This document shows, piece after piece, positions 5,044 through 27,739 of a stretch of DNA of 32,000 nucleotides. The position numbers and the translations under genes were made by a program. Source of the stretch: Dendronalium phyllosphericum CENA369. GTDB lineage: Bacteria > Cyanobacteriota > Cyanobacteriia > Cyanobacteriales > Nostocaceae. The notes below the pieces were generated by a model. The model saw nothing but the letters and a program-made list of their open reading frames with translations, had not been told where the DNA came from and did no database searches. Every line of letters starts with the position of its first letter. Positions within the stretch are counted from its first letter, which is position 1. The stretch spans positions 2,656 to 34,655 of the forward strand of contig NZ_JAECZA010000316.1 in the NCBI RefSeq assembly GCF_016056275.1, written 5' to 3'.

Positions 5044-7092
5044 ATGATGCATTTTAAGTTTTCACCAAAAATTCTGCAAAGGTTGGGAGAAGAACTCGTT
5101 CCAAATCCAGACCAAGGAATCATCGAATTGGTTAAGAACTCTTATGATGCTGATGCTACTGAATGCACAGTAGAACTTATCAAAACTAGTGCCATAGGTG
5201 GCTCGATTATTATTTCAGATAACGGTGTTGGTATGGATAAAGATGCCATTAGCGAGGGATGGCTGGTGCTAGGGCGCTCGAAAAAGGCTATCCGTGAAGT
5301 TACTCAATTAGGTCGCTTACCTGTAGGTAATAAAGGATTAGGTAGGTTAGCGGCTCTACAGATGGGTTCTCAAGTATTCTTAAAAACTAGACCTAAACAT
5401 GAGCCAGGAACTGAATATTCTTTAACGATTAATTGGGATGATTTTCAGGAAGCTGATGTAGTAGAAGATGTTCCTTTTGATGTAAAAAAAAGTAGTACAA
5501 ATCAACGGCATGGAACTGATATTATCGTCAACAATCTTAAAAAAATCTTTAATAAACATGATATTGTAAGACTAGCTAGGGAACTTTTACTGCTAGCAGA
5601 TCCATTTGAAAATCATGCAGGTTTTAGCCTGAAACTTATTGCTCCAGAATTTTCTGAAATTGAAAAGCAAGTAAACAATGCTTACTTTGATGATGCCGAA
5701 TATCATTTGCAAGCTAGTATAAATGAACTTGGGATTGCTGAAGCAAATTTGCTGGACTGGCAGAATAACGTAATTTTTCAGGCAAAACATAGTGATATTT
5801 CTCAAGAGCTTTACAAAACACCTCCAACAGAATTTGAATTGTGGGTATTCTTTCTAAATCCTCAAACTTTTTCAGCTAGAAAAACTTCTGTTTCTTTCAC
5901 ACAAGTTAGAGAATGGCTTGCTCAAGTAGGGAATGTTCGTCTCTACCATCGAGGTTTGCGGGTAAAACCCTATGGAGATCCGGACGATGATTGGTTGAAT
6001 TTAAATTATGCACGAGCAAGAAATCCAGAGGTACGTCCTTCAACTAAAACAGTTATTGGTAAAGTCATTGTTAAAGACCCTGAAGATATGTTACTTCAGA
6101 AAACTGATAGGCTTGGTTTTATTGAAAATGAAGCTTTTTTAGAGTTAAAACGCTTCGCAATTGATGTGTTGGAATGGATGGCGAAAGAAAGGCTTAAAGT
6201 CACTGAAACGCAAAGACAAAGGGTTAAGAAACAAGTTCCTCGTGATATTACACAAGCTAAAGCTAGGATTGAAGAAGTTATTGAAGAAGTTCCTCAAGAA
6301 TCTCGTCCTAAAATTCTAGAAGCTGTTCAGCAATACGAAACTGTAACAGAACGTGAAACCAAGGTATTACGTGAAGACCTTCAGCTTTATCGTAGTCTGG
6401 CTACAGCCGGAACAACCGCAGCAGTTTTCGCTCATGAATCTAGCAAACCAGTGACTTCAATTGAAAAAATAGCTAACAGAATAGAAAAAATGGGTAAAAA
6501 ATTTCTGGGAGAAAAATATGAACACTATTTAGGAGAACCAGTTACAAAGCTTTATCAAGTAAGTAAGTCATTACTACGCTTTTCTAATTTTCCGCTGCAT
6601 CTTTTGAAAAGAGAAAAACGTCGTACTGGTGTTGTAGATGTTCATAGTGTTATTGATGATATCGTTGCAGTTTTTCAAACTTTTTTTGATGAAGGTAAAA
6701 TTCAAGTTATCAAAGAAAAAGTTGACACTCAACCTTGTATTTATGGAAGCGATGCTTTGCTAGAAGCAATTATTACAAATCTTTTCACAAATGCTATAAA
6801 TGTTTTTAATATTGAAGGTGGACGCATAGAAGAACGTCAAGTAATTATCAGAACTGAAGTTCAAGGAAGTAATTTAAAAATTAAAGTTTTAGATAACGGT
6901 TCAGGAATTCATAATATAAAACTAGATGAAATTTGGCTACCTGGTAAAACTACTAGGGAAGGTGGCACAGGTTTAGGATTGACAATTGTGAGAGATTCTG
7001 TAACTGATCTGGGAGGCTCGGTAGATGCAATTCCAAAAGGGGAATTAGGTGGAGCAGAATTTATTGTAGAACTAACACTTATTAGAGAATAA
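5044..7092 (+). CDS. histidine kinase core fused to an additional N-terminal GHKL (HATPase_c_3 / MORC-Hsp90-like) ATPase module
   Basis: N-terminal module: ELVKNSYDADAT (N box), SDNGVGM (G1), GNKGLGRLAA (G2). C-terminal kinase core: H box FAHESSKPVTSI, N box ITNLFTNAINV, G1 LDNGSGI, G2 GGTGLGLTIV. No hydrophobic membrane segments were seen. Confidence 0.8.
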   Translation: MMHFKFSPKILQRLGEELVPNPDQGIIELVKNSYDADATECTVELIKTSAIGGSIIISDNGVGMDKDAISEGWLVLGRSKKAIREVTQLGRLPVGNKGLGRLAALQMGSQVFLKTRPKHEPGTEYSLTINWDDFQEADVVEDVPFDVKKSSTNQRHGTDIIVNNLKKIFNKHDIVRLARELLLLADPFENHAGFSLKLIAPEFSEIEKQVNNAYFDDAEYHLQASINELGIAEANLLDWQNNVIFQAKHSDISQELYKTPPTEFELWVFFLNPQTFSARKTSVSFTQVREWLAQVGNVRLYHRGLRVKPYGDPDDDWLNLNYARARNPEVRPSTKTVIGKVIVKDPEDMLLQKTDRLGFIENEAFLELKRFAIDVLEWMAKERLKVTETQRQRVKKQVPRDITQAKARIEEVIEEVPQESRPKILEAVQQYETVTERETKVLREDLQLYRSLATAGTTAAVFAHESSKPVTSIEKIANRIEKMGKKFLGEKYEHYLGEPVTKLYQVSKSLLRFSNFPLHLLKREKRRTGVVDVHSVIDDIVAVFQTFFDEGKIQVIKEKVDTQPCIYGSDALLEAIITNLFTNAINVFNIEGGRIEERQVIIRTEVQGSNLKIKVLDNGSGIHNIKLDEIWLPGKTTREGGTGLGLTIVRDSVTDLGGSVDAIPKGELGGAEFIVELTLIRE

Positions 7093-7097
7093 TTTTT

Positions 7098-7799
7098 ATG
7101 ATCATGACACCAGTTTTGAATGATAGAAGAATAGCTATCATTGATGATGATAAAAACCTAGCAGAGTTAACAGCTTGGGAAGTAGAAGAAGCAGGATATG
7201 AACCATTTTTATTAGACAATAAACACTTTCTCAAAGTTAATGATTTAGTATCTGTGATTAGAGAAAATAGTCAAGGTGCTGTGTGCGATCACCGATTGAT
7301 GAATTCTGGATTTGCTAACTTTTATGGAGCAGAATTAGTTGCAAATCTATACGATTTGAAATTTCCATCACTGTTGATAACTCAATTTACACAGATGGAT
7401 ACAGCTTTTTCTATTAGAAAATGGAGACATAAAATACCTGTACTACTAAGTCGAGATGAAGCCAATGCTTCAAGTATTGCTAAGGGAATAGAGGATTGTA
7501 CTTTAGAACTTTCTGGGAAAGTACCGAGTACCAGAAAACCTCGTAGAACGATAGTTAGGATTGCTAATATTGATGAAGAATCTAATGAACGTGTTATAGA
7601 TGCATTTATTCCAAGTTGGAATCCCTATACGGCTGTCCGTTTTCCAGCTTCTCTGATTCCAGAGAATATTAGAGTAGCATTAAAACCAAATATGCGTTTG
7701 TTTGCTCACGTAAACACAGGAGCAGAAAAAGCTGATGATCTATATTTTGAGAAATTTGAATTAGCACCTGAACCAGATGAAGATGACGGACTCGCCTGA
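7098..7799 (+). CDS. receiver (REC)-like domain protein with uncharacterised C-terminal domain
   Basis: RIAIIDDD (acidic pocket), AVCDHRL (candidate phospho-acceptor Asp) and SLLITQF (conserved Thr position) follow REC order. The C-terminal ~100 aa has no recognisable motif and no HTH. It starts 5 nt after the kinase stop and overlaps the next gene by 23 nt. Confidence 0.55.
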   Translation: MIMTPVLNDRRIAIIDDDKNLAELTAWEVEEAGYEPFLLDNKHFLKVNDLVSVIRENSQGAVCDHRLMNSGFANFYGAELVANLYDLKFPSLLITQFTQMDTAFSIRKWRHKIPVLLSRDEANASSIAKGIEDCTLELSGKVPSTRKPRRTIVRIANIDEESNERVIDAFIPSWNPYTAVRFPASLIPENIRVALKPNMRLFAHVNTGAEKADDLYFEKFELAPEPDEDDGLA

Positions 7800-8802
7800 A
7801 CTTATTATTTTAGATGTTGGACATGGAAATTGTGCGTTAATCAGGGATGCAAATGATGTAATTGTTATTGACTGTCCACCTGGGGGTACGTTGGTAGAAA
7901 CTCTTGAATATCTATCTATCAAAGAAATTTTACATATTCTCATTTCCCATTCTGATGCAGATCATATTGCGGGTATGATTGACTTACTCTCAAATGAAGA
8001 TATCAAAATTCATAATGTACATATAAACCCTGATGCAATTAAGAAAAGTGAAATTTGGAAGGATGTACGTTATGCTTTAAAAGACGCACGCCTACGGGGA
8101 ACTAAAGTTTCATCAGAATTAACAACAGCAAAAACGGGAAGTTTGAACATTGGTACAGTTAATATAGAAGTTCTTGCACCAACACCTGAATTAAATTTAA
8201 GTGGTGCTGGAGGAACTGATTTACAGGGGCGGCGATTAACTTCCAATTCAATATCAGCCGTTATAGGTATAGTTCACGATTCTCATAGAGTGGCTATACT
8301 AGCAGCAGATATTGATAATGTAGGCTTTGACAATTTGATTCAAGACCAAAAGAGTTTGAGTGCTGATATACTTGTTTTTCCTCATCATGGTGGAAAACCA
8401 GGAAGTGCAGATCCTAAAATATTTGCCCAGCAATTTTGTACTTTTATCCAACCAAAGTTAATAATATTTTCAATTGATAGAAATCGTTTTAATAATCCCC
8501 GCATAGAAATAGTAGAGGGTATTATTTCTTCAGTCCCAGATGCTCATATTTTATGCACTCAATTATCCAAACAATGTACTACTAGTCTTCCTAGTTCAAA
8601 GCCTACACATTTAAATACACTTCCTGCCAGAGGGCTTAATAGTAATAGCTGTTGTGGAGGAACTATTACTATTAAAATAGATGGTAGCAAGACAACTTAT
8701 GCTGAGATGGCTTTACATAAAGAGTTTATTATTAATCAAGTAACTAGCCCAATATGTCGAAAGTTTTTATCCATCTTTGAACCGGATAGCGTGTCCATTT
8801 AA
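7777..8802 (+). CDS. metallo-beta-lactamase-fold hydrolase, ComEC/Rec2-type (probable nuclease)
   Basis: ILDVGHGNCALI, ILISHSDADHIAGM (HxHxDH-type metal motif variant) and VFPHHGGK match the ComEC C-terminal MBL pattern. The tail is Cys-rich (C..C..CCGG..C). Confidence 0.8.
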   Translation: MKMTDSPELIILDVGHGNCALIRDANDVIVIDCPPGGTLVETLEYLSIKEILHILISHSDADHIAGMIDLLSNEDIKIHNVHINPDAIKKSEIWKDVRYALKDARLRGTKVSSELTTAKTGSLNIGTVNIEVLAPTPELNLSGAGGTDLQGRRLTSNSISAVIGIVHDSHRVAILAADIDNVGFDNLIQDQKSLSADILVFPHHGGKPGSADPKIFAQQFCTFIQPKLIIFSIDRNRFNNPRIEIVEGIISSVPDAHILCTQLSKQCTTSLPSSKPTHLNTLPARGLNSNSCCGGTITIKIDGSKTTYAEMALHKEFIINQVTSPICRKFLSIFEPDSVSI

Positions 8803-8934: not shown

Positions 8935-11900
8935 TTACCTATACTTTAGTTTCCTGAGACGTGCCAAAGCACTTACTACTGGAGGGTCTTTGACATCTTC
9001 AGGAATAATTACCTTGTCGTCAGGTTGAATACCACAAACATCAAAATCATGTTCCCCTATTTGCCATGCTGGCCGAATAAATATTTGCTTTTTCAGAATT
9101 CCAAGTTCTGTGAAGAAGTTTGCGCTAGAACCATCTTGAGATACACAGCCAGGAGTAAGAATATAAAAACCTAACTTTTCAAACATATCTATAAATTGGT
9201 CAAGATTCCTAGAATCTCTTGGATTCATAGTGTTAATCCGATACGTGAGGATAAATTGTGAGTCACTAGAAGCTTTTAGCCAGTCAGGATTCATTCCAAT
9301 AACTACGCGATAAGCTGCTGGATTGTCAGCATCGATTCCAGTAATAATAGATACTCTGATTTTTTCCTCAACATCTTCGTCTCCAATGTCTTTCCTCCAC
9401 TGATAAAAAATTTTCTTGCTTGCATTCTCATCTTGGAACAAAAGTGCAAGCTCTAAAAGTGGGAGATTACGATTATTTGGGATCAATCCGAACCCTGTTC
9501 CACTCCAACTAGCTTTATCCCAAAGATGAATATCAAGCAAGGAGAAGACCTTACGTTCGCGGTGTTTTAGGTGATCGACACTCTTGAGTTCAGGCGGAGG
9601 CTCACCGTGTCCTGGCTTGGGTGAAAATACATTAGCTCGTTCTTCAGAGATATTTTGAACTGTTTCATTGTTCCAGGCATTTGTTCGTTGAGGCGGAAAG
9701 TGCTTATCACTGTCGCTCAATTTCCAGTCCATAAGTTGCAGTTTTGGACTTTTACCCAAGATATTCCAAACTGCAATAGCTACGTTTGTAAAATCAAGTG
9801 CGCGAGAAAAAGCCAGTTCATCTTGTAAAAGTCCTTTAAAATACTGTTCCGGGTTTGATACAAACGCTATCTTAAAAATTACTCGAATAATTAATTCAGC
9901 CAGCGTTTTGCCTAATGATTCAGAATTAAGGTCTGCTATGTAAGATTCATTGACAGAATGTTTTACTTCTATGAGAGTTTCAAGAGTTTCTCCACCTTCC
10001 TCTTTAATGTGAAAATCAATAACGTTAGCAACAGAACCCGATGATACTATTTGAAATCTAATATTTGGTTGATGAGGGAATAATTGCGAATCAAGACTTG
10101 TTGCCAGAAAAGCTTCAAATGCAGCAAGAATTGACTCCGCAATAAACAGCGATCTACTATTATTTAAAACTTCAGCAACTACGTTGCAGCCAAGAACTTG
10201 TGAGCGGAGTTCTACTGTACCCTCTGCTAAAAATTCTGGTAGTTCTGGTAGGTCATGACTTGCTGGTTGTGCTATCCAATCATTAAAAAACTTACGTACA
10301 CTCGCCTCATCTTCCTCCTCTGGAATCCAACCCTCAGAACGAAGATAATCTTCATAACCTAGTGCGTACAACGATGCCATGAATGAATGATGAAACCCAA
10401 GTTCTTCGAGAACTGCTGGCAAAAACTCTAAACACTGCAAATCCTTAAGGGCAGTTTTAAGAAGAAGAATCCCAAGTACCGCATCTTGAGTTTCCCTCTC
10501 TTTAATAAATTTCTCTTTAGCTTCTTCATTGAGTCCAATTGCTTGTGCAATAACTGTAGAGGTTTCAATCCAAGCGAGTGTGATTGGAATCCGCCCTAAT
10601 TGTAATTCGAGCCAGACAAGACGTTGTAGACAGGCAAAGGCTTGAATAGTAATTGTGCTGTTTTCCCAATACTCATTAAAAGCTTGGGATGCTGCTAGGA
10701 GCATATTGGAACGCGCAGCCCACAGTAAGCCTATCGACTCATAAGCACTTGCACATAGAGATAGTGCAGCAATTAACTCACCATGACACTCACGCATAGC
10801 TAAGTTATGCTGCGCTCGACCAAGAAGATGAATTGCTTCGTAACGGTTTCCGCCAAGAAGTTTTTGCCTTCCTCGTGTCAAAAGCATACGTCCTGAAGTT
10901 GCTTTACTCTCGCGTTGTTGAGAGAGTATAAGTACAGCTTCAAAAAGTTCATCGAAGCCAGGATCATCAGGCAAATATTTACCGAGTTCCATGAGAATCT
11001 CGATCAATGGAGCTACGGGAAAGTTGACTAAACCTTCGCCCTCTGCAAATACCTTGCGAAATTCCTCAAGTATCCTTTTCAACTCAGCAGGTTCATGTCT
11101 GGACTCACTTAGATCCATTAGTAACTCAATGGATCTTGCTTGTAAGGCAGTGCTTGGTCTATCTTGATCAGCCTGGAGACGCTGTAATTCAGTATGTAAA
11201 GTTTTGGTTCGTGCTTCTAGCTTTGCATCGTAGGCTTCAAGTTGTGACCGTTGAACGGTTGTCCACAGAAGTTGCCATAGATTAGCTAATTTTTCAATAT
11301 CTGTGACTTGGCTGCTTTCAATTGCTAGACGCTCAACATCGTCGTAAATGCGGTTAAACGTGTGAAAGTCATCATGCCACCAATAAGCAGTCCATGCTTT
11401 GGCGTAAGCACACCGAAGCTTTTGCTGATGCATTCCATATTGTTCGGCTATACGCTCGGCTCGTGCAAAACGTCCCTCAACCTCTACACGTGGTAATTCA
11501 AGTTCACGTGATAGAATAGCTGCCTCAAGACAATCCTCAACAAGTTGATACTCGACACCTTGATAACGAATAGGATCTTTTATCTGCGTCTCTAGTTCTT
11601 TCAATTCAGCTTCACGAGATGTGTCTAAAGCCCCCTTTTTAACAGCTGGCGTAAGAGGCAAATTGATTTTAAGAGTTTCTACAGCTAGATTTTCTCGCTT
11701 GTTCTGAAACACCTTATCGAGTATCCAAGTTCTATCTAGAACTCGTACATAAATGTTGTACTGTTTTCTCAGTTCATCTTCAATGTTGGCTCGATCTTTA
11801 TCTTTGATATATCGACTACTGATGAAATAAATTAAAGTGTAGCTACGCTGCGTTTCTACAATTCCTTGGACATCAGAACGAACTTTTGAACGCCACTGTT

Positions 11901-12273
11901 GTTTTGCACTGACGGCAAATGCCCAACGTTCTGAGGCAGCTTCACGCCCAACTCCCTCATACCAGCGAAGTGAAACAGCATCGGATACAGGGTAGGTTTC
12001 AGAGTCTACCTTGCTGTCTCCTCCTCCAGTGGGGCCTGTTTGCGGTAAAAGGTTAGGACAAAGCTCTTTTTCAGCTAATCTGCGGCAGAAATGTTCAAAA
12101 TCCTTTTCTTGGCTACGGCTAGTCAATGTTTCTAAGTGATATTCCAAAAAGTTTCGATCTAGCAACGGCTCCCCAACTACTTGCGTATCGGAGAAAAGAT
12201 AAGGTCGCCGTGCCCTCATAAAATCCGAAGGGCGGAACGTTGCTGACTCAGGTTGCTGACGTTTTTCAACCAT
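8935..12273 (-). CDS. large (1112 aa) protein: N-terminal restriction-endonuclease-like (Mrr/PD-(D/E)xK-like) domain, long helical TPR-like middle, unknown C-terminal domain
   Basis: The ORF is long and uninterrupted. FEHFCRRLAEKEL..TGPTGGGDSKVD..WAFAVSAKQQW..YTLIYFISSRYI resembles the Mrr-type E..D..(E/Q/S)xK core. The middle is helical and repeat-like (for example GNRYEAIHLLGRAQHNLAMRECHGELIAALSLCASAYESIG). I found no convincing Walker A. Confidence 0.6.
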   Translation of the reverse strand: MVEKRQQPESATFRPSDFMRARRPYLFSDTQVVGEPLLDRNFLEYHLETLTSRSQEKDFEHFCRRLAEKELCPNLLPQTGPTGGGDSKVDSETYPVSDAVSLRWYEGVGREAASERWAFAVSAKQQWRSKVRSDVQGIVETQRSYTLIYFISSRYIKDKDRANIEDELRKQYNIYVRVLDRTWILDKVFQNKRENLAVETLKINLPLTPAVKKGALDTSREAELKELETQIKDPIRYQGVEYQLVEDCLEAAILSRELELPRVEVEGRFARAERIAEQYGMHQQKLRCAYAKAWTAYWWHDDFHTFNRIYDDVERLAIESSQVTDIEKLANLWQLLWTTVQRSQLEAYDAKLEARTKTLHTELQRLQADQDRPSTALQARSIELLMDLSESRHEPAELKRILEEFRKVFAEGEGLVNFPVAPLIEILMELGKYLPDDPGFDELFEAVLILSQQRESKATSGRMLLTRGRQKLLGGNRYEAIHLLGRAQHNLAMRECHGELIAALSLCASAYESIGLLWAARSNMLLAASQAFNEYWENSTITIQAFACLQRLVWLELQLGRIPITLAWIETSTVIAQAIGLNEEAKEKFIKERETQDAVLGILLLKTALKDLQCLEFLPAVLEELGFHHSFMASLYALGYEDYLRSEGWIPEEEDEASVRKFFNDWIAQPASHDLPELPEFLAEGTVELRSQVLGCNVVAEVLNNSRSLFIAESILAAFEAFLATSLDSQLFPHQPNIRFQIVSSGSVANVIDFHIKEEGGETLETLIEVKHSVNESYIADLNSESLGKTLAELIIRVIFKIAFVSNPEQYFKGLLQDELAFSRALDFTNVAIAVWNILGKSPKLQLMDWKLSDSDKHFPPQRTNAWNNETVQNISEERANVFSPKPGHGEPPPELKSVDHLKHRERKVFSLLDIHLWDKASWSGTGFGLIPNNRNLPLLELALLFQDENASKKIFYQWRKDIGDEDVEEKIRVSIITGIDADNPAAYRVVIGMNPDWLKASSDSQFILTYRINTMNPRDSRNLDQFIDMFEKLGFYILTPGCVSQDGSSANFFTELGILKKQIFIRPAWQIGEHDFDVCGIQPDDKVIIPEDVKDPPVVSALARLRKLKYR

Positions 12274-15399: not shown

Positions 15400-17550
15400 C
15401 TACAGCCTATTCACAATATTTCCATTAAACCAGGCAATCTTCTTTAAGTCATGACATAACCATTCATAAGCTAGCTCAGTTGCAGAGTTTGGTTTGAATA
15501 CATCTAGTACTTCTGAATTTATAGAAGCGTAAAGCCATGTTGATGCTTCTTTCCTTAGTGATAACAGTTGACTGTTCAAAACAGAAATAGAATAATCACA
15601 GCCTTTTGGAAATAAATTTTCTTTTGTGGGAAAAAAGCACAAGTCTACGCAGCTTTGTTTGCCTTTCGGCAGTGGTTCCCAATAAGATATTATCCAAGGT
15701 TGGTTATTATATGAATTTGGTAAAATAATTTTTCCTACAAAACGCGCTGGCAGCGTTACTGCCGTTGTCAGCCTGGGCGCAAATTTGGAAAAATACGTAT
15801 TAACTAGTTGCTGGTATCCCTCAATAGCACCTTCGTAAACAGCTTTTGCACGAACTAATAATTGTAGTTCGGAGTAGCTCTCCCATATCCATCCATCTGT
15901 AATATCAATATCTGGTTCAGGCCACGGAGAATGCAACTCGGCTTCTCCATCTTGGCGGAGGCTGTTAACTTGAGCTATAAGGTGCTTAAGACCGTAGCAG
16001 TATTCGTACTCGTTTACCCAAGAAGGAATATTCAATGATGACTTAGAAAGACATTCTTCAATTTCACTCAGAGAAATAGGACTATAATTTAACTCCCCAC
16101 GACTAGTAACTATAAGTGCGGTCTGCCAAACAATTTCTTTAAAAATTGATCCGTGGTTGACTGGCAGCATACGCTTTTCCAATAATTGAGATAGTGAACT
16201 ACTAAGCTCATTAAGCGTCAAATTCCAAGCCAAAGCTGATTTATGATTAGCCACCTTAACGCCTGTTAATCCAAACCAATTGGATAATAATTCTGGCTCA
16301 GAAAATGGCGATATAACAATATCAGGCAGATTCTCATCACCACAGTACCAACCAGTTGTCAGATACATTTCGTCTGCGTCAACACCAATTGGTAAAAGCG
16401 TATTATCCTCACGTACTGGTGCAATTAACTTAGAAAGTGGAGCAATACCATCTATCCATGCCTGCATCGCTGTTCGTATTCTTCGCCCAAATTCCAGTGA
16501 TAATGGTAAAGGAACTGATTGTGTGACGTTCCATCTTGTTATTGCCAGCTCTTCCTTGACAATCTCTGAAATAAATGCAGGATGTTTCTGGACTAGTGGC
16601 ACAAGTACCTTTGATACTTGCTCATAACTGTAATTACCAACAAAGATAGCTAGCGGATAGCGCCAACGTTCGAGCCGCTGTGGCTCAAGTTTGAGATCAT
16701 TGGGGTCAATGATGCCAGCAGCTAAACTTTGCGCTGCAAACCATTGTGTTAGAATTGGCAGCGGGAAACCAATAGTTCCTGCATTCTCAACAACTAACCC
16801 CGTATTTAAAAGCATCTGAAATTCTGATGTTGTTCCGCCGATGTCAGTCTTAGAAACTACACCTATACTACAGTCAGTAGCTTGAGCAGCAAGGCATAGT
16901 AGTAATTGCTCAACATTAGAGTTGTTTGCTCTTGCTTTTTCGAGGGAACGTTCAACAAGATTTGACAGTAAATCCCCAGGCGAGGTTGATGCTATTGTGC
17001 CTTGGTTTTTTAAATAGACACCAAGCAATACTGCAAATAAAGGTCGGCGAATAGCATGACGGATGGACTCCGGCCATTGGGAAGAAACATATGGCGGAAT
17101 TGGTTGTTTTGAAATTCTTTCTACAAGAGCATATGCTTCATTCTCTGTAAGTGGAGGAACTTGAACAGCCTCTTCAACTTTAGATAAAGCGGGGATAGCT
17201 CTGCTAGTAATTACTAGGGTAGTTTTTTCCCATGTATTAACAAGAATGCGAGCTTCATTAAGTAAATGTGCTGCTAAGGCGCTTCCTGCTTCGTCAGCCC
17301 CGTCAATGATTGCGGTAACACCTTGTGAGAAGGACTGTCCTAGCTTGCTGATTTCTTCTTCTATAGTTTTTTGTAACTGTCCTGCCACCTGCTGCGCTTT
17401 TAAATCCACAGGTATAGGAGCTGCGGGATTTTTGCGGGCCTGTTTAATTGCATCTTGGAAGAGGCGTTGTGCAAGCAATGACTTACCTACACCAAAATCA
17501 CCGATTAGTATTATTAAAGGGTTTTCATCATTAGGTTGAAACTTAGACAA
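15400..17550 (-). CDS. NACHT-type STAND NTPase (NLR-like) with non-repetitive C-terminal region; frame stays open upstream to 17715
   Basis: Walker A is LIGDFGVGKS and the NACHT-style Walker B is AIIDGADEAG. The ~450-aa C-terminal region has no recognisable repeats. The only start is TTG 17550, and the 55 codons upstream are stop-free and in frame with the 149-aa ORF. Confidence 0.8.
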   Translation of the reverse strand: MSKFQPNDENPLIILIGDFGVGKSLLAQRLFQDAIKQARKNPAAPIPVDLKAQQVAGQLQKTIEEEISKLGQSFSQGVTAIIDGADEAGSALAAHLLNEARILVNTWEKTTLVITSRAIPALSKVEEAVQVPPLTENEAYALVERISKQPIPPYVSSQWPESIRHAIRRPLFAVLLGVYLKNQGTIASTSPGDLLSNLVERSLEKARANNSNVEQLLLCLAAQATDCSIGVVSKTDIGGTTSEFQMLLNTGLVVENAGTIGFPLPILTQWFAAQSLAAGIIDPNDLKLEPQRLERWRYPLAIFVGNYSYEQVSKVLVPLVQKHPAFISEIVKEELAITRWNVTQSVPLPLSLEFGRRIRTAMQAWIDGIAPLSKLIAPVREDNTLLPIGVDADEMYLTTGWYCGDENLPDIVISPFSEPELLSNWFGLTGVKVANHKSALAWNLTLNELSSSLSQLLEKRMLPVNHGSIFKEIVWQTALIVTSRGELNYSPISLSEIEECLSKSSLNIPSWVNEYEYCYGLKHLIAQVNSLRQDGEAELHSPWPEPDIDITDGWIWESYSELQLLVRAKAVYEGAIEGYQQLVNTYFSKFAPRLTTAVTLPARFVGKIILPNSYNNQPWIISYWEPLPKGKQSCVDLCFFPTKENLFPKGCDYSISVLNSQLLSLRKEASTWLYASINSEVLDVFKPNSATELAYEWLCHDLKKIAWFNGNIVNRL

Positions 17551-17715
17551 AGGTGCGCCAATAGATGTATCATTGGCAAGTTCAATCGCTTGGCTGCGAG
17601 TTACACCAGCAGCTTGCCACAGAGATATACACCGACTTATGGATAGTCGATCTAGTTCTTCTAATCTATCAGTGAGGGGATTATACTTTACCCGATCCTG
17701 GTCGGGTGGCTTCAG

Positions 17716-17718
17716 TCA
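17716..17718 (-). other. in-frame TGA between the 149-aa module and the NACHT ORF (candidate readthrough site or nonsense mutation)
   Basis: 17716 minus 17548 is 168, a multiple of 3. None of the 55 intervening triplets is a stop. The next base after TGA is C. Confidence 0.9.
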
Positions 17719-18165
17719 CAAGTTTATAGTTTGATTTTGGATGTTAATACTAGACTTTATTCCTTGAGCTAAGTTCACAACTTTTTCAATGCTATTCGTG
17801 ATCGCGCTTTGGTAATTACTCTGCTTTTCTCTAAGTGCTTTATCCAGTTCAGAATTATGCTTAGTAGCTTCTTTTACATCATTTCCCAAAGCTTCTACTG
17901 CCATCTTAATTTCTTGGTCTGCTTGTGCTGCTTTCTTCACCTCTTCTACTAAGACAGCTTCACCAATATCTTCTTGTCCATCAGGTGGTAGCGCTAAAGG
18001 TTCCACTACTGCTTGTAAAGCATTTGCTGTCTCAGGGAACTTTCTTTTCAAAAGTTGCATTACCTTTTCCGCAGCTTGATCTAAAGCTTTTTCTGTTGAC
18101 CAATCAATAATTTTCCCTGATAGCCAAATGGCAAACGCGATCGCTCCAGTAGTCAGTGGCTCCAT
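17716..18165 (-). CDS. 149-aa helical module protein with hydrophobic N-terminal helix and N/Q/I-rich tail; paralog of 24481-24894
   Basis: MEPLTTGAIAFAIWLSGKIIDWS.. and EDIGEAVLVEEVKKAA..EIKMAVEALGNDV are shared with the other copy. GAGGTAGCAC lies before the ATG. The tail is GIKSSINIQNQTINL. Confidence 0.7.
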   Translation of the reverse strand: MEPLTTGAIAFAIWLSGKIIDWSTEKALDQAAEKVMQLLKRKFPETANALQAVVEPLALPPDGQEDIGEAVLVEEVKKAAQADQEIKMAVEALGNDVKEATKHNSELDKALREKQSNYQSAITNSIEKVVNLAQGIKSSINIQNQTINL

Positions 18166-19194: not shown

Positions 19195-21453
19195 CTAAAG
19201 GGATCTCCCTCTACTCTGTCTTCTTTCTTGTTGCCGCTTTTCTTCTATTATTTGTTGCAATACGCGCTCTGCTTCACGCCAAAAGCCGAGGTCAAGAGAG
19301 TCTACTGACCCTACATTAATCGGTGAATACTCAAGCTCACCTGACTGGTTTCGGTTGACCGCCACTCGAAATATTTCACCTCGTTCATCATGGGTAAACA
19401 CCAATTCTCTACCCTGTTTTTCTAAAGTTGCTCGTTTGAATCTCAGGCTATTTGAGCCACTTTCTCTTAATTGCCAATTGATTAATTCAACAGCAACAGG
19501 CACAGCGAAGGCTAAATATTCGGACTGTAACTGCTGTTTTTGGTCAAGTTGCTGTGATGGTTGTTCTTGCTTTGATGCCAATTGATTGTTAGCGATTAGA
19601 ACTAATGCTTTAGCTTCATCAGCAGTCCATCCGGCTGGACTGCCTAGTATAATTTCTTCAACTTCTTCGACTGACTTATTATCTAATAGCGCCAAGGTAG
19701 CAATTTCTTTGTCTCGGTCAGTCACTAATAAGTTTTGTAAGTCGGTGCTGTAATACTTATATAACTCGGCTCTTAGTTCCTCTTTTAGTTTTGGTTGATC
19801 TGTGGTTAGAGTTGAAGCTTTATTAAGAGCGTTCGCATCCACTGCTTTTTGTGATCTGTGGAGTTGCTCCAAATAAACAATCACTGCAAAGAGGTCATCG
19901 AATGTGGTTTTTCCGGCTTTAAGTTGCTGCCGATATTGAGATAGTTGTTCGGTTAATTGTGGTAACGTTTCAATCAAGGCTGACTCAACTACTGATTGTT
20001 CAATAAAGTTAGCGATTGCATCCACTGCTTTTTGTAATGAAAGTTGTTGCTCCAAATCAGTAATTGCCGTTGACAAGTCGTTTAATGCGATTCTTCCTTC
20101 TTTTAGCTGCTGCTGATGCCCGTGTAATTGTTCTAGAAATTGTGGCAACCCTTCAACCAAGGCTGACTCAACTGCTCTTGAGTCAATATAGTTAACGATT
20201 GCATCCACTGCTTTTTGTGATATAAGTTGTTGCTCCTGTTGAGCAATCACCGCTCTTAGGTCGTCTAATGTAGTTCTTTCTTCTTTTAATTGCTGCTGAT
20301 ACAGTAACAATTGTTCTGTTAATTCTGTTAATTTTGGTAATGTTTCAACTAAGGCTGACTCAACTGCTCTTGAGTCAATATAGTCAACAATTGCATCCAC
20401 TGCTTTTTGTGATGTAAGTTGTTGCTCCTGTTGAGCAATCACTGCTCTTAGGTCGTCGAATGTAGTTCTTTCTGCTTTTAACTGCTGCTGATAAAGTGAC
20501 AGTTGTTCTGTTAATTCTGTTAATTGTGGTAACGTTTCAACTAAGACTGACTCAACTGCTGACTGTTCAATATAGTTAACGATCACATTTATGAGTTCTT
20601 GGTTGTCAACTGCTCGCCCGACATGATTATGCAACAGTTGCTCAATTCGCTCATCATCCCGTTGTGGCTGATAGTCAATTTCTTTATGTTTTTGCAGTCC
20701 AGGCCAAGTATAGGCAGGCCCCAAAGATGTACCGCTAAATTTCTGCCCGTTCCACGAGTAAGAGATGCCTTTACTTTTGCCGTTGCGTGTTACACCGTGA
20801 CGAACTTCTACGCCTTGTAGTTGCAGTCGTTCAATAACTTGGGGCATGATCGGTCTATTTACCGTGGCGCGGTCGATGAGTTCAATTAGTTGTTGTTTGA
20901 TGGGACGTTCTTGTGGCGAGAGGCGATCGCCTTTAATGTATTCAAGCTGCTCTCGCTCTAGTCGTCTTTGTTGCCCAATACTTGGGTTGCGGGTTAATTT
21001 ATCGTGGCTGCTGTGAGTTTGTTGTAACCCGTAATCCCGTTCTAGCTGCCGGATAATACTTTCACTGCGTTTGTAATCCCAGCTATCATGAACTATCTTG
21101 CCGTTGTCCAAACGGATGCGACTAGCGCAGATATGGATGTGGTCGTGCTGAGTGTTGCTGTGTCTGTAGACTACATACTGGTTGCTGTCAAAACCCATCT
21201 CTTCAAGGTAGCGTTGAGCGATTTCGTTCCAGGTTGCGTCATCGAGTCGTTCGCCTTGGGGTAGAGATAGTGATGCGTGGTAAACTACTCTGTCGGCTTC
21301 ATAGTTCAATTGACGCGAGATTTTGAATTCAACAGCCAGGGCGCGGGGGTTTCTGCCGCCCATGTTGCCACCAATAAGTTTGGCTCCTTCTTGAGATTGG
21401 AGATAATTGAGCAGTCCGCGAAATCCTCGCCCCTTAGTCTGGTTGCCAATCAT
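19195..21453 (-). CDS. MOB relaxase (MobA/VirD2-type relaxase domain) with repeat-containing coiled-coil C-terminal half
   Basis: GRGFRGLLNYL carries the catalytic Tyr context, with YHASLSLP and the histidine triad HSNTQHDHIHICASRI. ATG 21453 (MIGNQTKGRG) is preferred; the ORF track uses TTG 21492. Confidence 0.9.
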   Translation of the reverse strand: MIGNQTKGRGFRGLLNYLQSQEGAKLIGGNMGGRNPRALAVEFKISRQLNYEADRVVYHASLSLPQGERLDDATWNEIAQRYLEEMGFDSNQYVVYRHSNTQHDHIHICASRIRLDNGKIVHDSWDYKRSESIIRQLERDYGLQQTHSSHDKLTRNPSIGQQRRLEREQLEYIKGDRLSPQERPIKQQLIELIDRATVNRPIMPQVIERLQLQGVEVRHGVTRNGKSKGISYSWNGQKFSGTSLGPAYTWPGLQKHKEIDYQPQRDDERIEQLLHNHVGRAVDNQELINVIVNYIEQSAVESVLVETLPQLTELTEQLSLYQQQLKAERTTFDDLRAVIAQQEQQLTSQKAVDAIVDYIDSRAVESALVETLPKLTELTEQLLLYQQQLKEERTTLDDLRAVIAQQEQQLISQKAVDAIVNYIDSRAVESALVEGLPQFLEQLHGHQQQLKEGRIALNDLSTAITDLEQQLSLQKAVDAIANFIEQSVVESALIETLPQLTEQLSQYRQQLKAGKTTFDDLFAVIVYLEQLHRSQKAVDANALNKASTLTTDQPKLKEELRAELYKYYSTDLQNLLVTDRDKEIATLALLDNKSVEEVEEIILGSPAGWTADEAKALVLIANNQLASKQEQPSQQLDQKQQLQSEYLAFAVPVAVELINWQLRESGSNSLRFKRATLEKQGRELVFTHDERGEIFRVAVNRNQSGELEYSPINVGSVDSLDLGFWREAERVLQQIIEEKRQQERRQSRGRSL
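19847..20613 (-). repeat. four in-frame tandem coding repeats (210, 192, 183, 183 nt) inside the relaxase gene
   Basis: The marker GCATCCACTGC recurs at 19835, 20018, 20201 and 20393. The protein units are AVD(A/N)..VESALVETLP.LTEQL..YQQQLK....DDL.AVI..QEQQL.SQK. Confidence 0.85.
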
Positions 21454-21832
21454 CGGTTTCCTCATCCTCCTCAGATATGAAGGTTTTGGCAATTTCTCGT
21501 TGGCAGTGCCGCAACAGTTCTAGTAGTTCGTTTAATAGTTCTGGATCTGCTGGCGGTGGCAGTTGCATTTTGATGGCAGTGTTGGCAACTTTGGCCAATT
21601 GGTTGATGTTGTTGCCGATGCGGGAAAGTTCCAAGTAGGTGGCTACTGTAACTCTGCCCAGTCGCGGCGGCGGTGGTGGAATTGGTCGCAGTAACATACA
21701 ACGTCTTGTCAGTTCTGCCAAGCTCATACTCGCGTCTTCTGCTTTTGACCGAACCATCTCATATTCAATTGGGCTGAACCGCGCTTGCAGTCTTTTGGTG
21801 CGGATGAGTGACGACGAAGAACGCTTGGTCAT
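21434..21832 (-). CDS. mobC: MobC-family relaxosome accessory protein
   Basis: RFSPIEYEMVRSKAEDASMSLAELTRRC (RHH-like) and IGNNINQLAKVAN are typical of MobC. It lies immediately upstream of, and overlaps, the relaxase gene. Confidence 0.85.
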   Translation of the reverse strand: MTKRSSSSLIRTKRLQARFSPIEYEMVRSKAEDASMSLAELTRRCMLLRPIPPPPPRLGRVTVATYLELSRIGNNINQLAKVANTAIKMQLPPPADPELLNELLELLRHCQREIAKTFISEEDEETDDWQPD

Positions 21833-24480: not shown

Positions 24481-24894
24481 ATGGAGCCACTAACTGCGGG
24501 TGCGATCGCTTTTACAAGCTGGGTGGTAGGTAAACTGATTGACTGGTCAACAGACAAAACTTTTGATATAGCCTCACAACGGCTGATGCAACTCCTTGTT
24601 GAAAAATCGCCAGACACAGCCAAAAGCTTAACAGCAGCAGCAGAGCGTGCCGCTTTAGCGCCTAATGAACGAGAAGATATTGGGGAAGCAGTCTTGGTAG
24701 AAGAAGTGTCCAAGGCAGCAGCCAAAGATGCAGAAATTAAAGCAGCAGTAGAAGCTTTAGGAAATGATGTCAATCAAGCTGTAAACGAGAATCGTGAAGT
24801 TGAAAAGCGTTTGACAACTGTGATTGAGAATTGGAAAGGGATAAGCATAAAGGGCGGAATTACTACAATCAATAATCCTACCCTTAACTTTTGA
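24481..24894 (+). CDS. 137-aa helical module protein, paralog of 17716-18165
   Basis: MEPLTAGAIAFTSWVVGKLIDWS.. and EDIGEAVLVEEVSKAA..EIKAAVEALGNDV match the other copy. GAGGTAGTAC lies before the ATG. The tail is GISIKGGITTINNPTLNF. Confidence 0.7.
   Translation: MEPLTAGAIAFTSWVVGKLIDWSTDKTFDIASQRLMQLLVEKSPDTAKSLTAAAERAALAPNEREDIGEAVLVEEVSKAAAKDAEIKAAVEALGNDVNQAVNENREVEKRLTTVIENWKGISIKGGITTINNPTLNF
24892..24894 (+). other. in-frame TGA between the 137-aa module and the NB-ARC ORF
   Basis: 24481 and 24988 are in the same frame. The 31 intervening codons have no stop and no ATG/GTG/TTG. The next base after TGA is C. Confidence 0.9.
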
Positions 24895-24987
24895 CTACAG
24901 TCGTCCTCTGGGGAAAGGACAAAGTTAAATCCCCCAAATAATGTTCCTCGTAGTGGTGTAGTTAAGTTCATCGGACGAGAATCAGAA

Positions 24988-26013
24988 TTGGAGCAACTAC
25001 ACACGCAATTGCAGCAAGTAAACTTAGTTTCTATTTCTGCGATAGAAGGCATGGGAGGAGTGGGCAAAACAGAACTCGCTATTCAGTACACTCAGCAGTA
25101 TAAATCGTCTTATGAAGGAGGTATCTGCTGGCTATTTGCTAGAGAATTTAACGTAGGTACTCAGGTTATCGGGTTTGCCCAATCTCAACTGAACCTGAAA
25201 ATTCCAGAAGGATTAGAATTGTATGACCAAGTAGCTTTTTGCTGGCGAAACTGGTGTGAAGGTGATGTTCTGCTGGTATTGGATGATGTGGTTAACTATC
25301 GCCGAGATATCGAACCATACTTGCCGTCTGCTGCATTCACCCGCTTCAAGATAGTGATGACAACTCGGCAAAAGTTTAGTCCACCCGTTCAGTCGCTGTC
25401 TCTAGATGTGCTGTCTCCAGAACAATCTCTAGAATTGTTGACAGTTTTAATTGGGAAAGAACGAGTTCAGCAGGACTTTGAGATAGCCAACACACTTTGT
25501 CATTGGTTAGAGTATCTACCTCTGGGAATCGAACTTGTTGGGCGCTATTTGCTTGAGCGAAAGGAGCTATCGCTTTTCACACTGCTGTTCCGGCTGCAAG
25601 AGAAAGCCTTGGAGCGGCAAGCAATTAGATACGCCGCTCTTAAGCTAAATGAGGAAAATAGTACTTCAACAGGTAGACGGGGGGCAGAAGCTGCGTTTGA
25701 GTTGAGTTGGGTTGAGCTAGATAACAACAGTCAGCACTTAGGTAAGTTATTGAGTGTGTTTGCATCTGCACCAATTCCCTGGTACTTAGCTGAGTCAGCC
25801 GAGCGAAACTATTGTGAAAACTCTAATGGTGGTAACAAGTTTGATGTTGAGGAAATGGAGGAAGCAAGAGCTAAGTTATTAAGATTTCACTTGCTACAAC
25901 TTTTGCAGCAGCAGGAGCAAATCTACCGTCTACATTCGCTAATTCGTGAGTTCTTTAGAAGCAAGTTAGAAGGAGAACCTGATGTTACAACTTCGGACTC
26001 AAAAGCAAATTGA
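24988..26013 (+). CDS. NB-ARC-type STAND NTPase domain (NLR-like); coding sequence evidently begins upstream of the TTG, and the C-terminus is frameshifted into the TPR ORF
   Basis: GMGGVGKTELA (P-loop), VLLVLDDV (Walker B), KIVMTTRQ, and YLPLGIELVGRYL (GLPL-like). The conserved pre-P-loop motif FIGRESELEQL straddles or precedes the TTG start. Confidence 0.8.
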   Translation: MEQLHTQLQQVNLVSISAIEGMGGVGKTELAIQYTQQYKSSYEGGICWLFAREFNVGTQVIGFAQSQLNLKIPEGLELYDQVAFCWRNWCEGDVLLVLDDVVNYRRDIEPYLPSAAFTRFKIVMTTRQKFSPPVQSLSLDVLSPEQSLELLTVLIGKERVQQDFEIANTLCHWLEYLPLGIELVGRYLLERKELSLFTLLFRLQEKALERQAIRYAALKLNEENSTSTGRRGAEAAFELSWVELDNNSQHLGKLLSVFASAPIPWYLAESAERNYCENSNGGNKFDVEEMEEARAKLLRFHLLQLLQQQEQIYRLHSLIREFFRSKLEGEPDVTTSDSKAN

Positions 26014-27739
26014 AGCAAAGAAATTAAAACGTGCTGTGGCTGCTGCAATGGTAGCAATTTCTCAAAAAATACCTGATTCACCAACTCAAGAGGATATTAA
26101 ATTAGTAAAAGATGCAATACCACATTTAGCGGAGGTGGCACAAAATCTAACTGATGTAGTTAGTGATCAAGATTTAATTTGGCCTTTTGTAGGCTTAGGT
26201 AAATTTTATCGGGGACAGAGTTTGTATGCGATCACACAAGCTTGGTGTGAGGAATGCGTAACAGTATTAAAATCCCGCCTTGGGAATGAACATCCTCATG
26301 TAGCAACTAGTCTGAATAATTTAGGAGAAGTCTATTGTTCTCAAGGACGTTACAGCGAAGCCGAACCTTTGCTCATGCAAGCTTTGGTGATGAGGAAACC
26401 CTTGCTAGGAGACGAACACCCAGATGTCGCAACTACTATGAACAATTTGGCATCTCTCTACAGTTCCCAAGGACGGTACACCGAAGCGGAACCTTTGCTC
26501 ATCAAAGCTTTGGCAACGTATAAACACCTGTTGGGGGATAAACACCCTAATGTCGCCATTAGCCTGAATAATTTGGCAAAACTTTACAATTCCCAAGGAC
26601 GGTACACCGAAGCGGAACCTTTGCTCATCGAAGCTTTGGCAACGTATAAACACCGATTTGGGGATGAACACCTTAATGTCGCCATTAGCCTGAGTAATTT
26701 GGCATCTCTCTACAGTTCCCAAGGAAGGTACACCAAAGCCGAACCTTTGTATATCAAAGCTTTGGAAATGACAAAACGCCTGCTGGGGGATGAACACCTT
26801 GATGTCGCATCTAGTATGAACTGTTTGGCTGGACTTTACGACTCTCAGGGACGCTACACTGAAGCTGAACCCTTGTACGTTGAGGCTTTGGTGATGAGAA
26901 AACGCCTGCTGGGGGATGAACACCCTGATGTTGCATCTAGTATGAACAATTTGGCATTTCTCTACAGTTCCCAAGGACGGTACACCAAAGCCGAACCTTT
27001 GTATATCAAAGCTTTGGAAATGACAAAACGTCTGTTGGGGGATGAACACCCTCATGTAGCACAAAGCCTGAATAATTTGGCATCTCTCTACCATTCTCAA
27101 GGACTTTACAGCGAAGCCGAACCTTTGTTCATCCAAGCTTTGGTGATGAGGAAACGCTTGCTGGGAGATAAACACCCTGATACTATATCTAGCCTGAATA
27201 ATTTAGCATTTATCTACCATTCTCAAAGACGTTACAGCGAAGCTGAACCTTTGTTCGTCCTAGCTTTGGTGATGAGAAAACGCCTGTTGGGGGATGAACA
27301 CCCTGATGTTGCAACTAGTCTGAATAATTTGGGAGAACTCTATTATTTTCAAGGACGTTACAGCGAAGCCGAACCTTTGCTCATCGAAGCTTTGGTGATG
27401 TGGAAACGCTTGCTGGGAGATGAACACCCTCATGTGGCACAAAGCCTGAGCAATTTAGCAGAACTCTACCGTTCCCAAAGACGCTATAACGAAGCCGAAC
27501 CTTTATTCATCCAAGCTTTAGCGATGAAAAAACGTTTGCTGGGAGATAAACACCCAGATATTGCATCTAGCCTGAACAATTTGGCAGGACTCTACTATTT
27601 TTTAGGACGTTACAGTGAAGCCGAATTTTTGTTAATCGAGACTTTGGAGATTTTGGAACAAGAGTTAGGAGCAAATCATCCCAATATAATCACGACGCAA
27701 AATAATTTGGAATCTTTGCGTCAACGTCGTCAGTCTTAG
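25982..27739 (+). CDS. TPR-repeat (kinesin-light-chain-like TPR_10/12) sensor region of the NLR, encoded in the +1 frame relative to the NB-ARC ORF
   Basis: Eleven ~42-aa repeats of the form HP.VA.SLNNLA.LY.SQGRY.EAEPL...AL.M.KRLLGDE. The frame is open from 25970 and overlaps the NB-ARC ORF end (26013). Confidence 0.8.
   Translation: MLQLRTQKQIEAKKLKRAVAAAMVAISQKIPDSPTQEDIKLVKDAIPHLAEVAQNLTDVVSDQDLIWPFVGLGKFYRGQSLYAITQAWCEECVTVLKSRLGNEHPHVATSLNNLGEVYCSQGRYSEAEPLLMQALVMRKPLLGDEHPDVATTMNNLASLYSSQGRYTEAEPLLIKALATYKHLLGDKHPNVAISLNNLAKLYNSQGRYTEAEPLLIEALATYKHRFGDEHLNVAISLSNLASLYSSQGRYTKAEPLYIKALEMTKRLLGDEHLDVASSMNCLAGLYDSQGRYTEAEPLYVEALVMRKRLLGDEHPDVASSMNNLAFLYSSQGRYTKAEPLYIKALEMTKRLLGDEHPHVAQSLNNLASLYHSQGLYSEAEPLFIQALVMRKRLLGDKHPDTISSLNNLAFIYHSQRRYSEAEPLFVLALVMRKRLLGDEHPDVATSLNNLGELYYFQGRYSEAEPLLIEALVMWKRLLGDEHPHVAQSLSNLAELYRSQRRYNEAEPLFIQALAMKKRLLGDKHPDIASSLNNLAGLYYFLGRYSEAEFLLIETLEILEQELGANHPNIITTQNNLESLRQRRQS
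26288..27676 (+). repeat. about 11 tandem 126-bp coding repeats (TPR units)
   Basis: The periodic DNA and protein repeat is seen directly. It also generates long spurious antisense ORFs. Confidence 0.85.

Follow-up and report, generated by a model that had tools for sequence, protein, structure and literature searches.

Read-through of a stop codon promoted by a dedicated downstream RNA structure is a textbook subject in eukaryotic viruses and, to our knowledge, essentially undocumented in bacterial cellular genes. The type II read-through signals of alphaviruses, coltiviruses and tobraviruses consist of UGA-CUA or UGA-CGG and a 3' structure, with spacers of 8 nucleotides (nt) (PMC13517186). 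In E. coli, the UGA of phage Q-beta is read through at 3-5% (PMC13517186). Here we analyze a candidate for this kind of gene organization in a 32,000-nt stretch of DNA (hereafter, the window) from the cyanobacterium Dendronalium phyllosphericum CENA369 (contig NZ_JAECZA010000316.1, positions 2,656 to 34,655), where a small open reading frame (ORF) ends in a TGA and is continued in frame by the ORF of an NB-ARC protein of the NOD-like receptor (NLR) type.

The locus resembles the viral type II signals and the pseudoknot of murine leukemia virus (MuLV) gag-pol in having C(UA) after a putatively leaky UGA, an RNA structure about 8 nt further on, and the predicted output of a minor extended and a major short product. 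The viral signals act on eukaryotic ribosomes with eRF1, whereas this is a cyanobacterium with RF2, and the structure found here is far smaller, a 5-bp stem that possibly belongs to a compact pseudoknot. There is no sequence relationship to the viral signals, so that any similarity would be convergent. With the coat/A1 pair of Q-beta the locus would share a bacterial UGA read-through of a few percent, which yields an essential extended protein having its N-terminal part in common with an abundant short one; coat/A1 is, however, a phage gene and neither a cellular gene family nor an NLR, and we know of no dedicated downstream RNA structure that it requires.

The encoded proteins recall the Bell/BASS-NLR pairs of multicellular cyanobacteria, in which an alpha-helical protein of about 100 amino acids with a C-terminal short motif adjoins an NB-ARC/NACHT-TPR protein (bioRxiv 10.1101/2020.01.06.895854), and with which we group, as a comparison for amyloid-type templating, the Bab/Agp system of E. 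coli (bioRxiv 10.1101/2024.11.07.622273). Unlike in those pairs, the NLR of the window locus has neither a start codon nor a motif copy of its own, and the two ORFs are joined in frame by a UGA and a hairpin. The motif pairing that defines the Bell/BASS systems is present only in sister two-gene loci, and homology of the N-terminal domain (N-domain) to Bell is not established. The preprint on these pairs (bioRxiv 10.1101/2020.01.06.895854) makes no mention of stop codons or read-through. All-in-one NLRs, which carry effector domain, NOD and repeats in a single chain (e.g., EAD10-NB-ARC proteins), have the architecture that the read-through product would share, and their linkers are homologous; the difference is that the fusion would here be conditional on passing a stop, and no constitutive fusion of the N-domain to an NTPase was found. 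In the literature open without subscription and searched in full text, no in-frame stop, read-through or recoding element is described for cyanobacterial NLR or Bell-like loci. Stop-codon read-through and NLRs with an amyloid-motif partner are each known; their combination, together with a structured stimulator in bacterial cellular genes, appears to be new.

The core of the plus-strand locus (W+) consists of the following elements.

24481..24891, plus strand: small ORF of 137 amino acids (ATG 24481), an all-alpha N-domain with a hydrophobic N-terminal helix (MEPLTAGAIAF...) and a C-terminal motif
24826..24891, plus strand: the C-terminal, putatively amyloid-like motif ENWKGISIKGGITTINNPTLNF, conserved in the family and abutting the stop exactly
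24892..24894, plus strand: in-frame TGA (context UUU UGA CUA), at which read-through is proposed
24895..26013, plus strand: NB-ARC ORF, continuing the frame of the small ORF through 372 sense codons to TGA 26011-26013
24988..24990, plus strand: TTG at residue 32 after the TGA, the only canonical start candidate, within the NB-ARC/AAA_16 domain match

As the initial annotation had pointed out, the 137-residue ORF ends at TGA 24892-24894 in the frame of the NB-ARC ORF, and the 31 in-frame sense codons that come next (24895-24987; translation LQSSSGERTKLNPPNNVPRSGVVKFIGRESE) contain neither a stop nor an ATG, GTG or TTG. The downstream protein matches the Pfam family NB-ARC (PF00931) with E = 5e-13 and 49.3 bits against a cutoff of 23.5 and has the features of an NB-ARC STAND NTPase, with the Walker A motif GMGGVGKT at 25048-25071, from residue 52 of the post-TGA translation. 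The NB-ARC match begins at residue 29 (profile position 2) and that of AAA_16 at residue 24 (profile position 1), that is, ahead of the TTG at residue 32, so that the domain starts upstream of the sole canonical start. The earlier statement that initiation at TTG 24988 would cut off a conserved part of the domain is therefore borne out.

The same annotation had seen a like arrangement in a second locus, and this minus-strand paralog (W-) indeed has all of its elements.

17719..18165, minus strand: small ORF of 149 amino acids, paralogous to that of W+, with the C-terminus ...INIQNQTINL
17716..17718, minus strand: in-frame TGA in the context UUG UGA CUG
15400..17715, minus strand: NACHT-like P-loop NTPase ORF of 771 sense codons, in frame with the small ORF

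After the TGA (17718-17716) there are 55 in-frame sense codons before the first canonical start, TTG 17550 (residue 56), and the Walker A motif GDFGVGKS begins at residue 72. Neither W+ nor W- has a second copy of the motif after the TGA.

The DNA around relatives of the small protein was taken from plasmids, genomes and metagenomes, and plasmids were also searched with the 51-nt junction; L numbers designate the further loci compared. In 32 distinct loci the small ORF ends in TGA right after the C-terminal motif and a long ORF follows in frame 0, an organization that we call layout A (W+, W-, L001, L002, L005, L009, L010, L011, L015, L016, L018 to L022, L026, L028, L034, L035, L036, L039, L042, L043, L045, L048, L049 and L054 to L059). 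The stop is TGA in 32/32 of them and the downstream frame is 0 in 32/32, with in-frame continuations of 63 to 1344 or more codons. The base that follows the TGA (+4) is C in 26 loci, A in 4 and G in 2, and never U. Layout A was found in Nostocales, Oscillatoriales (Microseira, Floridaenema) and Acaryochloris, including the model strains Nostoc PCC 7120 (pCC7120gamma), Acaryochloris marina MBIC11017 (pREB4 and pREB5) and Cylindrospermum stagnale PCC 7417.

Two further layouts were found among the relatives. In layout B (7 loci) the small ORF ends in ...FNFGSK and the next gene starts in another frame, from an ATGA overlap or from a separate ATG; its NLR product opens with a second motif copy (M-T-x-ENWQGINxK...) followed by NB-ARC, and the paired motif is present on both proteins in the two-gene loci L023, L004, L008, L031 and L052. 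In layout C (10 loci) the small ORF stands alone and has a TAA stop in 9. Leaving aside the ATGA overlaps, TAA closes 10 of the 11 small ORFs outside layout A, against the TGA of layout A (Fisher p = 3e-8). A stop-free run of 31 codons has by itself a probability of (61/64)^31, about 0.23, and is thus unremarkable; it is the combination of TGA and frame 0 in every layout-A locus with the preference for TAA elsewhere that makes chance untenable.

In layout A the small ORF closes directly on the final hydrophobic residue of its motif (..TLNF*, ..QTVNL*, ..FHQTF*), and the small ORFs of two-gene and stand-alone loci bear an extra G-(S/N/G)-K tail.

The ORFs behind the TGA appear to be translated and yet to have no usable starts of their own. 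Their ratio of nonsynonymous to synonymous substitution rates (dN/dS) is 0.08-0.46, similar to that of the small ORFs, and ORFs of 500-1344 codons remain open; for the NB-ARC ORF of W+ against that of L057 we obtained a dN/dS of 0.077, at saturated dS. In L010, L034, L055 and L056 the earliest canonical start in frame is the Met of GMGGVGKT itself; it lies past Walker A in L054 (Nostoc PCC 7120; residue 84 against 56) and in L058 (103 against 54), and 2-7 residues ahead of Walker A in five more loci.

The product conceptually translated through the TGA aligns residue by residue with the N-termini of the layout-B NLRs, through motif, linker, NPPNN, FVGRE and GMGGVGKT, with 6-8 additional residues in layout A at the stop and hairpin. 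The motif lies about 48 residues from Walker A in layout B, and the TGA of W+ lies 52 residues from it. At the DNA level, the junction of the layout-B locus L023 (ttt GAG TCG CCT GAA GAA AAT CCC CCA AAT AAT) is that of layout A minus exactly 18 nt, which supply the end of the loop, the 3' arm and the A-rich stretch of the hairpin region described below. The linker peptide that follows the TGA (..NPPNNxPxxGxxxFVGRE) is also found inside all-in-one NLRs, e.g., EAD10-NB-ARC proteins. In the alignment with intact NB-ARC-TPR proteins, the residues encoded by 24895-24987 are colinear with translated N-terminal linkers and homologous to them, which is the point that the initial annotation had wished to see confirmed.

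The stop is maintained. A sense-codon fusion of the N-domain to an NTPase was absent from the 72 close homologs of the small protein, all of 108-177 amino acids. When 1.84 billion representative proteins were searched with a profile, 218 matched; of the best 150, only four were longer than 177 amino acids, and none of these four carried an NTPase. The conceptual fusion used as a query matched only NLRs with other N-termini. An 80-residue linker query of the protein database returned short fragments only, apart from the linker peptide in other NLR N-termini, and it is therefore uninformative about fusions.

The 45 nt after the TGA are better conserved than either flanking ORF, and their consensus is TGA CUACAGUC GCCCG AACGGGAA CGGGY AAAGUUAAA UCCCCC. 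In the window, this element is made up as follows.

24895..24902, plus strand: spacer CUACAGUC of W+, 8 nt, of invariant length in the alignments
24903..24920, plus strand: hairpin S1 of W+, with the arms GUCCU (24903-07) and AGGAC (24916-20) around the loop CUGGGGAA (24908-15), showing three compensatory differences from the consensus
24910..24934, plus strand: possible pseudoknot stem S2 of W+, pairing the loop GGGGA (24910-14) with UCCCC (24930-34) across the A-rich stretch AAAGUUAAA (24921-29)
17690..17707, minus strand: hairpin S1 of W-, ACCCGA/UCGGGU around the loop CCAGGA, which is the minimum free energy (MFE) structure, with an A-U closing pair as a compensatory variant

The 5-bp stem S1 starts 8 nt past the stop, and 99.4% of its cells are paired in 32 sequences. 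Both-side changes occur at 4/5 pairs, with C-G replaced by U-A six times; W+ itself has GUCCU/AGGAC, and L059 has GUCCG/CGGAC beside the GCCUG/CGGGC of its relatives. The covariation score was matched by 0/500 shuffles, and when the partner strand was slid by 1-3 nt the pairing fell to only 15-56%. The frequent G.U pairs in S1 indicate a fold on the sense strand, i.e., in the mRNA. The codons obey the pairing as well. The Arg codon 8 after the TGA is CGG in 24/25 cases, with one compensated AGG, while CGG makes up 19% of the Arg codons in the downstream ORFs; in L056 this codon is TGG (Trp), with a G.U pair kept. At codon 6 the amino acid varies (R/W/G/Q) and the GG is kept, and codon 9 is GUA, GCA or ACA, tracking its pairing partner. 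The frozen synonymous sites, and the fact that codons 6, 8 and 9 follow the pairing, place the constraint on the RNA rather than on the peptide.

An Rfam scan of the site gave only noise, the element had 0 matches in the viral contigs scanned, and no terminator-like site was found between the small ORF and the NB-ARC ORF. We did not adopt an outer stem of UGACU (24892-24896) with AGUYA (24923-24927), which is 89% paired, shows no compensatory change and has one pair broken in 10/32 sequences.

Taken together, the invariable TGA and frame 0, the covarying hairpin, the purifying selection downstream, the lack of usable starts and the colinearity with two-gene NLRs argue for a programmed UGA read-through that would join the small ORF and the NTPase ORF into one translational unit with a leaky stop, a reading to which we assign a probability of roughly three in four. 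The proposal of the initial annotation that the NTPase depends on translation through the TGA is thus strongly supported by the comparative evidence, read-through itself being the most probable explanation.

The course of events that we envisage begins with initiation at ATG 24481 and synthesis of the 137-residue helical protein with its C-terminal amyloid-like motif. Most ribosomes would terminate at UGA 24892-94. A minority would decode the UGA, probably as Trp through near-cognate tRNA-Trp, and enter the NB-ARC ORF, placing the helical domain and the motif on the N-terminus of the NTPase. UGA-C is the weakest termination tetranucleotide in E. coli studies, and this weak context, together with the hairpin 8 nt past the stop, may promote the read-through; the hairpin would stand at the mRNA entry channel while the UGA is in the A site. 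As a working hypothesis, S1 and S2 may together form a compact H-type pseudoknot in which S1 comes first. Near-cognate tRNA-Trp is the usual bacterial route of UGA decoding, as cited in PMC7918605.

One gene would thereby provide an abundant free executioner and a rare NLR-tethered copy, replacing the two-gene arrangement of the sister loci, and the oligomerized tethered copy could template the free protein via the shared motif. We infer from the sequences the read-through and its efficiency, the inserted residue, the pseudoknot, the amyloid templating and a role of the locus in cell death or defense. If this is true, a compact and easily mutated signal present in model strains (Nostoc PCC 7120, A. 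marina MBIC11017, Cylindrospermum PCC 7417) would offer a bacterial recoding system. It would also represent a new way of keeping the dose of a dangerous NLR low and its stoichiometry coupled to that of its executioner, and a bridge between two known NLR layouts, the two-gene amyloid pairs and the all-in-one proteins. Finally, dozens of cyanobacterial NLR genes annotated with arbitrary starts (ATT, P-loop ATG) would have wrong N-termini.

Several observations weigh against this interpretation. The stem S1 is only 5 bp long, its structure was derived and counted on the same sequences, and these sequences are phylogenetically related, so that the counts exceed the number of independent events. 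The folding energies are no better than those of shuffled sequence (z = -0.5 to 0); for W+ the MFE structure given by ViennaRNA, which does not model pseudoknots, takes the S2 stem and not S1. S2 is 92% paired yet nearly invariant, and its 3' strand (AAUCCCCC) occurs with identical DNA also in two-gene loci that would not need it, which leaves S2 weakly supported. In four layout-A loci (L005, L034, L042 and L043) the NB-ARC ORF is interrupted by another in-frame stop after 63-165 codons, and the NLR of W+ is itself split at 25982-26013. The four loci could be pseudogenes or assembly errors, and the broken downstream ORFs together with the split NLR mean that part of the set may be decaying. 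In addition, assignment of the N-domain to the Bell family, tried without Bell reference sequences, or to a solved fold did not succeed; Foldseek gave nothing below E = 1 and the PDB sequence search nothing below E = 0.02. The small protein of L043 also occurs in L044, where the downstream ORF stays open over more than 378 codons.

An alternative that we consider unlikely is that there are two separate genes, the NTPase being translated from a non-canonical or internal start (ATT, or a downstream TTG, GTG or ATG) and the hairpin serving translational coupling, mRNA processing or stability. The sister loci do consist of two genes coupled through ATGA starts, the loop of the hairpin (GGGAA) is rich in purines and faintly Shine-Dalgarno-like, and RefSeq and other gene callers do annotate such starts, namely ATT in L054, L055, L056 and L036 and TTG, GTG or ATG elsewhere. 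No start candidate is positionally conserved, however, the ATT position being GTT in W+; there is no start-like codon 5-10 nt past the loop, and the canonical starts lie within or past Walker A in six loci. Moreover, separate genes would leave unexplained both the invariable TGA with frame 0 and the 18-103 codons that separate the stop from the first start, which are open and homologous to translated linkers. With regard to the annotated starts, the NCBI annotation is the one that uses ATT and other gene callers take the P-loop ATG, in a set that also includes L044, L045, L048 and L049.

The same TGA-hairpin cassette joins differing N-domains, one of them not detectably homologous to those of the window (Acaryochloris) and another weakly related (PCC 7120), to downstream partners as different as NB-ARC-TPR, NACHT-like and CHASE2 proteins. 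The small protein of W+ has its nearest relatives (74-84% identity) in two-gene loci, which implies module swapping, with a recent exchange of the 3' end. We therefore considered that the conserved 40-nt junction could be mainly a DNA or RNA recombination joint that shuffles N-domains between sensor modules, with the in-frame stop as a by-product and the NLR expressed in some other way. A junction far better conserved than both of its flanks, the linking of unrelated N-domains to unrelated downstream domains and the swapping just mentioned would all fit. Nevertheless, the strand-specific G.U pairs and the compensatory changes point to a folded sense-strand RNA, and a joint leaves the translation of the NLR unexplained; it can coexist with read-through and does not compete with it, and as a sufficient account we find it very improbable.

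A broader proposal, which we regard as evenly balanced between true and false, combines read-through with this mobility. A portable recoding cassette made up of UGA-C, a spacer of 8 nt and a compact structure (hairpin or pseudoknot) would set the ratio of a free membrane-targeting executioner to a rare executioner-NLR fusion that shares its start codon, making a one-gene version of an amyloid-signaling NLR pair, and would have been moved by recombination between effector domains and sensor modules across cyanobacterial orders. In that case stress or infection could also modulate how often the stop is read through, and no structured stimulator of read-through would have been known before in bacterial cellular genes.

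That the TGA is a nonsense mutation, the NLR part a decaying pseudogene and only the small ORF functional is an explanation to which we give hardly any weight. The break between NB-ARC and TPR in W+, the truncated downstream ORFs of several related loci and the fast turnover of NLR-like genes speak in its favor, but a decaying gene would not be expected to keep the stop at one position in 32 loci of three orders with long intact ORFs behind it, a dN/dS of those ORFs well below 1, or a conserved, covarying RNA element flanking the stop. Furthermore, the homolog and fusion searches found no intact ancestor form with a sense codon.

Decoding of the UGA as selenocysteine, with the hairpin as a bacterial selenocysteine insertion sequence (SECIS) bound by SelB, is suggested by the layout of a UGA with a close hairpin in the coding sequence, which is that of a bacterial SECIS; the loop AACGGGAA on a 5-bp stem is, we take it, unlike the fdhF-type SelB site. 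This explanation is barely credible, since the site is an interdomain linker for which no Cys-containing or sense-codon homologs were found, there is no Rfam match at the site and no tRNA gene in the window, and the selenocysteine trait was undetected in Cyanobacteria (PMC1794560).

Four other candidates were rejected: a +1 frameshift at UUU UGA C (the shifted frame is closed after 11 codons, and the sense codon before the TGA is unconserved), ribosomal bypassing (no matched take-off and landing codons), reassignment of TGA (an ordinary stop for other ORFs of the window) and a plasmid suppressor tRNA (the window has no tRNA gene).

The split of the W+ NLR between NB-ARC and TPR was absent from the initial annotation, and it involves one further ORF.

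25982..27739, plus strand: TPR ORF of 585 amino acids, the sensor half of the split NLR, in the +1 frame from ATG 25982 (TPR_12, E = 2e-200)

This ORF overlaps the end of the NB-ARC ORF by 32 nt (25982-26013), at the boundary between NOD and TPR. The NLR of the closest relative, L057 (Nostoc sp. C057, plasmid p057_C), is split at the equivalent boundary (L057 positions 5100-5150), in a different frame and with a gap of 38 nt, and it is annotated in RefSeq as two coding sequences. Its split site has a duplicated-looking junction (REFFRSKLE/WKFLQGKLE), suggesting recombination between paralogs. In W+, the NLR may truly consist of two polypeptides, or it may have begun to decay; advanced decay is at odds with the strong purifying selection seen on its NB-ARC part.

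The small protein of W+ was modeled by AlphaFold2 as a 6-helix bundle with a predicted local distance difference test (pLDDT) score of 76 and with residues 121-137 disordered. No family for it was found in Pfam, NCBIfam or PADLOC. The disorder of residues 121-137 is the only indication obtained here that the C-terminal motif may form amyloid and template its partner. A protein of 86 amino acids from Scytonema sp. NUACC21 (P0073) has the first 15 N-domain residues (MEPLTAGAIAVGTIV) fused directly to ..VKLNPPNN..FVGR..GMGGVGKT, and it looks like a deletion derivative that has lost the stop, half of the hairpin and the greater part of the N-domain. In the Floridaenema locus L011 (4484-4543), the TGA is in frame with a NACHT-type ORF of 1266 codons and the junction is divergent; a 4-bp stem (UCUG/CAGA) is found at the equivalent positions, and its loop CCAG is complementary to a CUGG downstream.

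The window is plasmid-like: a relaxase, ParA and ParB are among its products, as is a Prim-Pol/DUF3987 protein. Megablast of the W+ locus against plasmid sequences gave no match. At 5044-8802, on the plus strand, there is a 682-residue protein with two HATPase_c-type domains, followed by an uncharacterized ORF of 233 amino acids and a protein of the metallo-beta-lactamase fold. The large ORFs 465-1916, 2128-3642 and 8935-12273, located near this region, had no Pfam match, and all four regions may contain further plasmid-borne conflict genes. The relaxase is of the MobA/VirD2 type (19195-21492, minus strand) and carries in its C-terminal half about 4 tandem repeats of roughly 45-60 amino acids (..QKAVDAIVDYIDSRAVESALVETLPKLTELTEQL..QQQLK..DDLRAVIAQQEQQL..).

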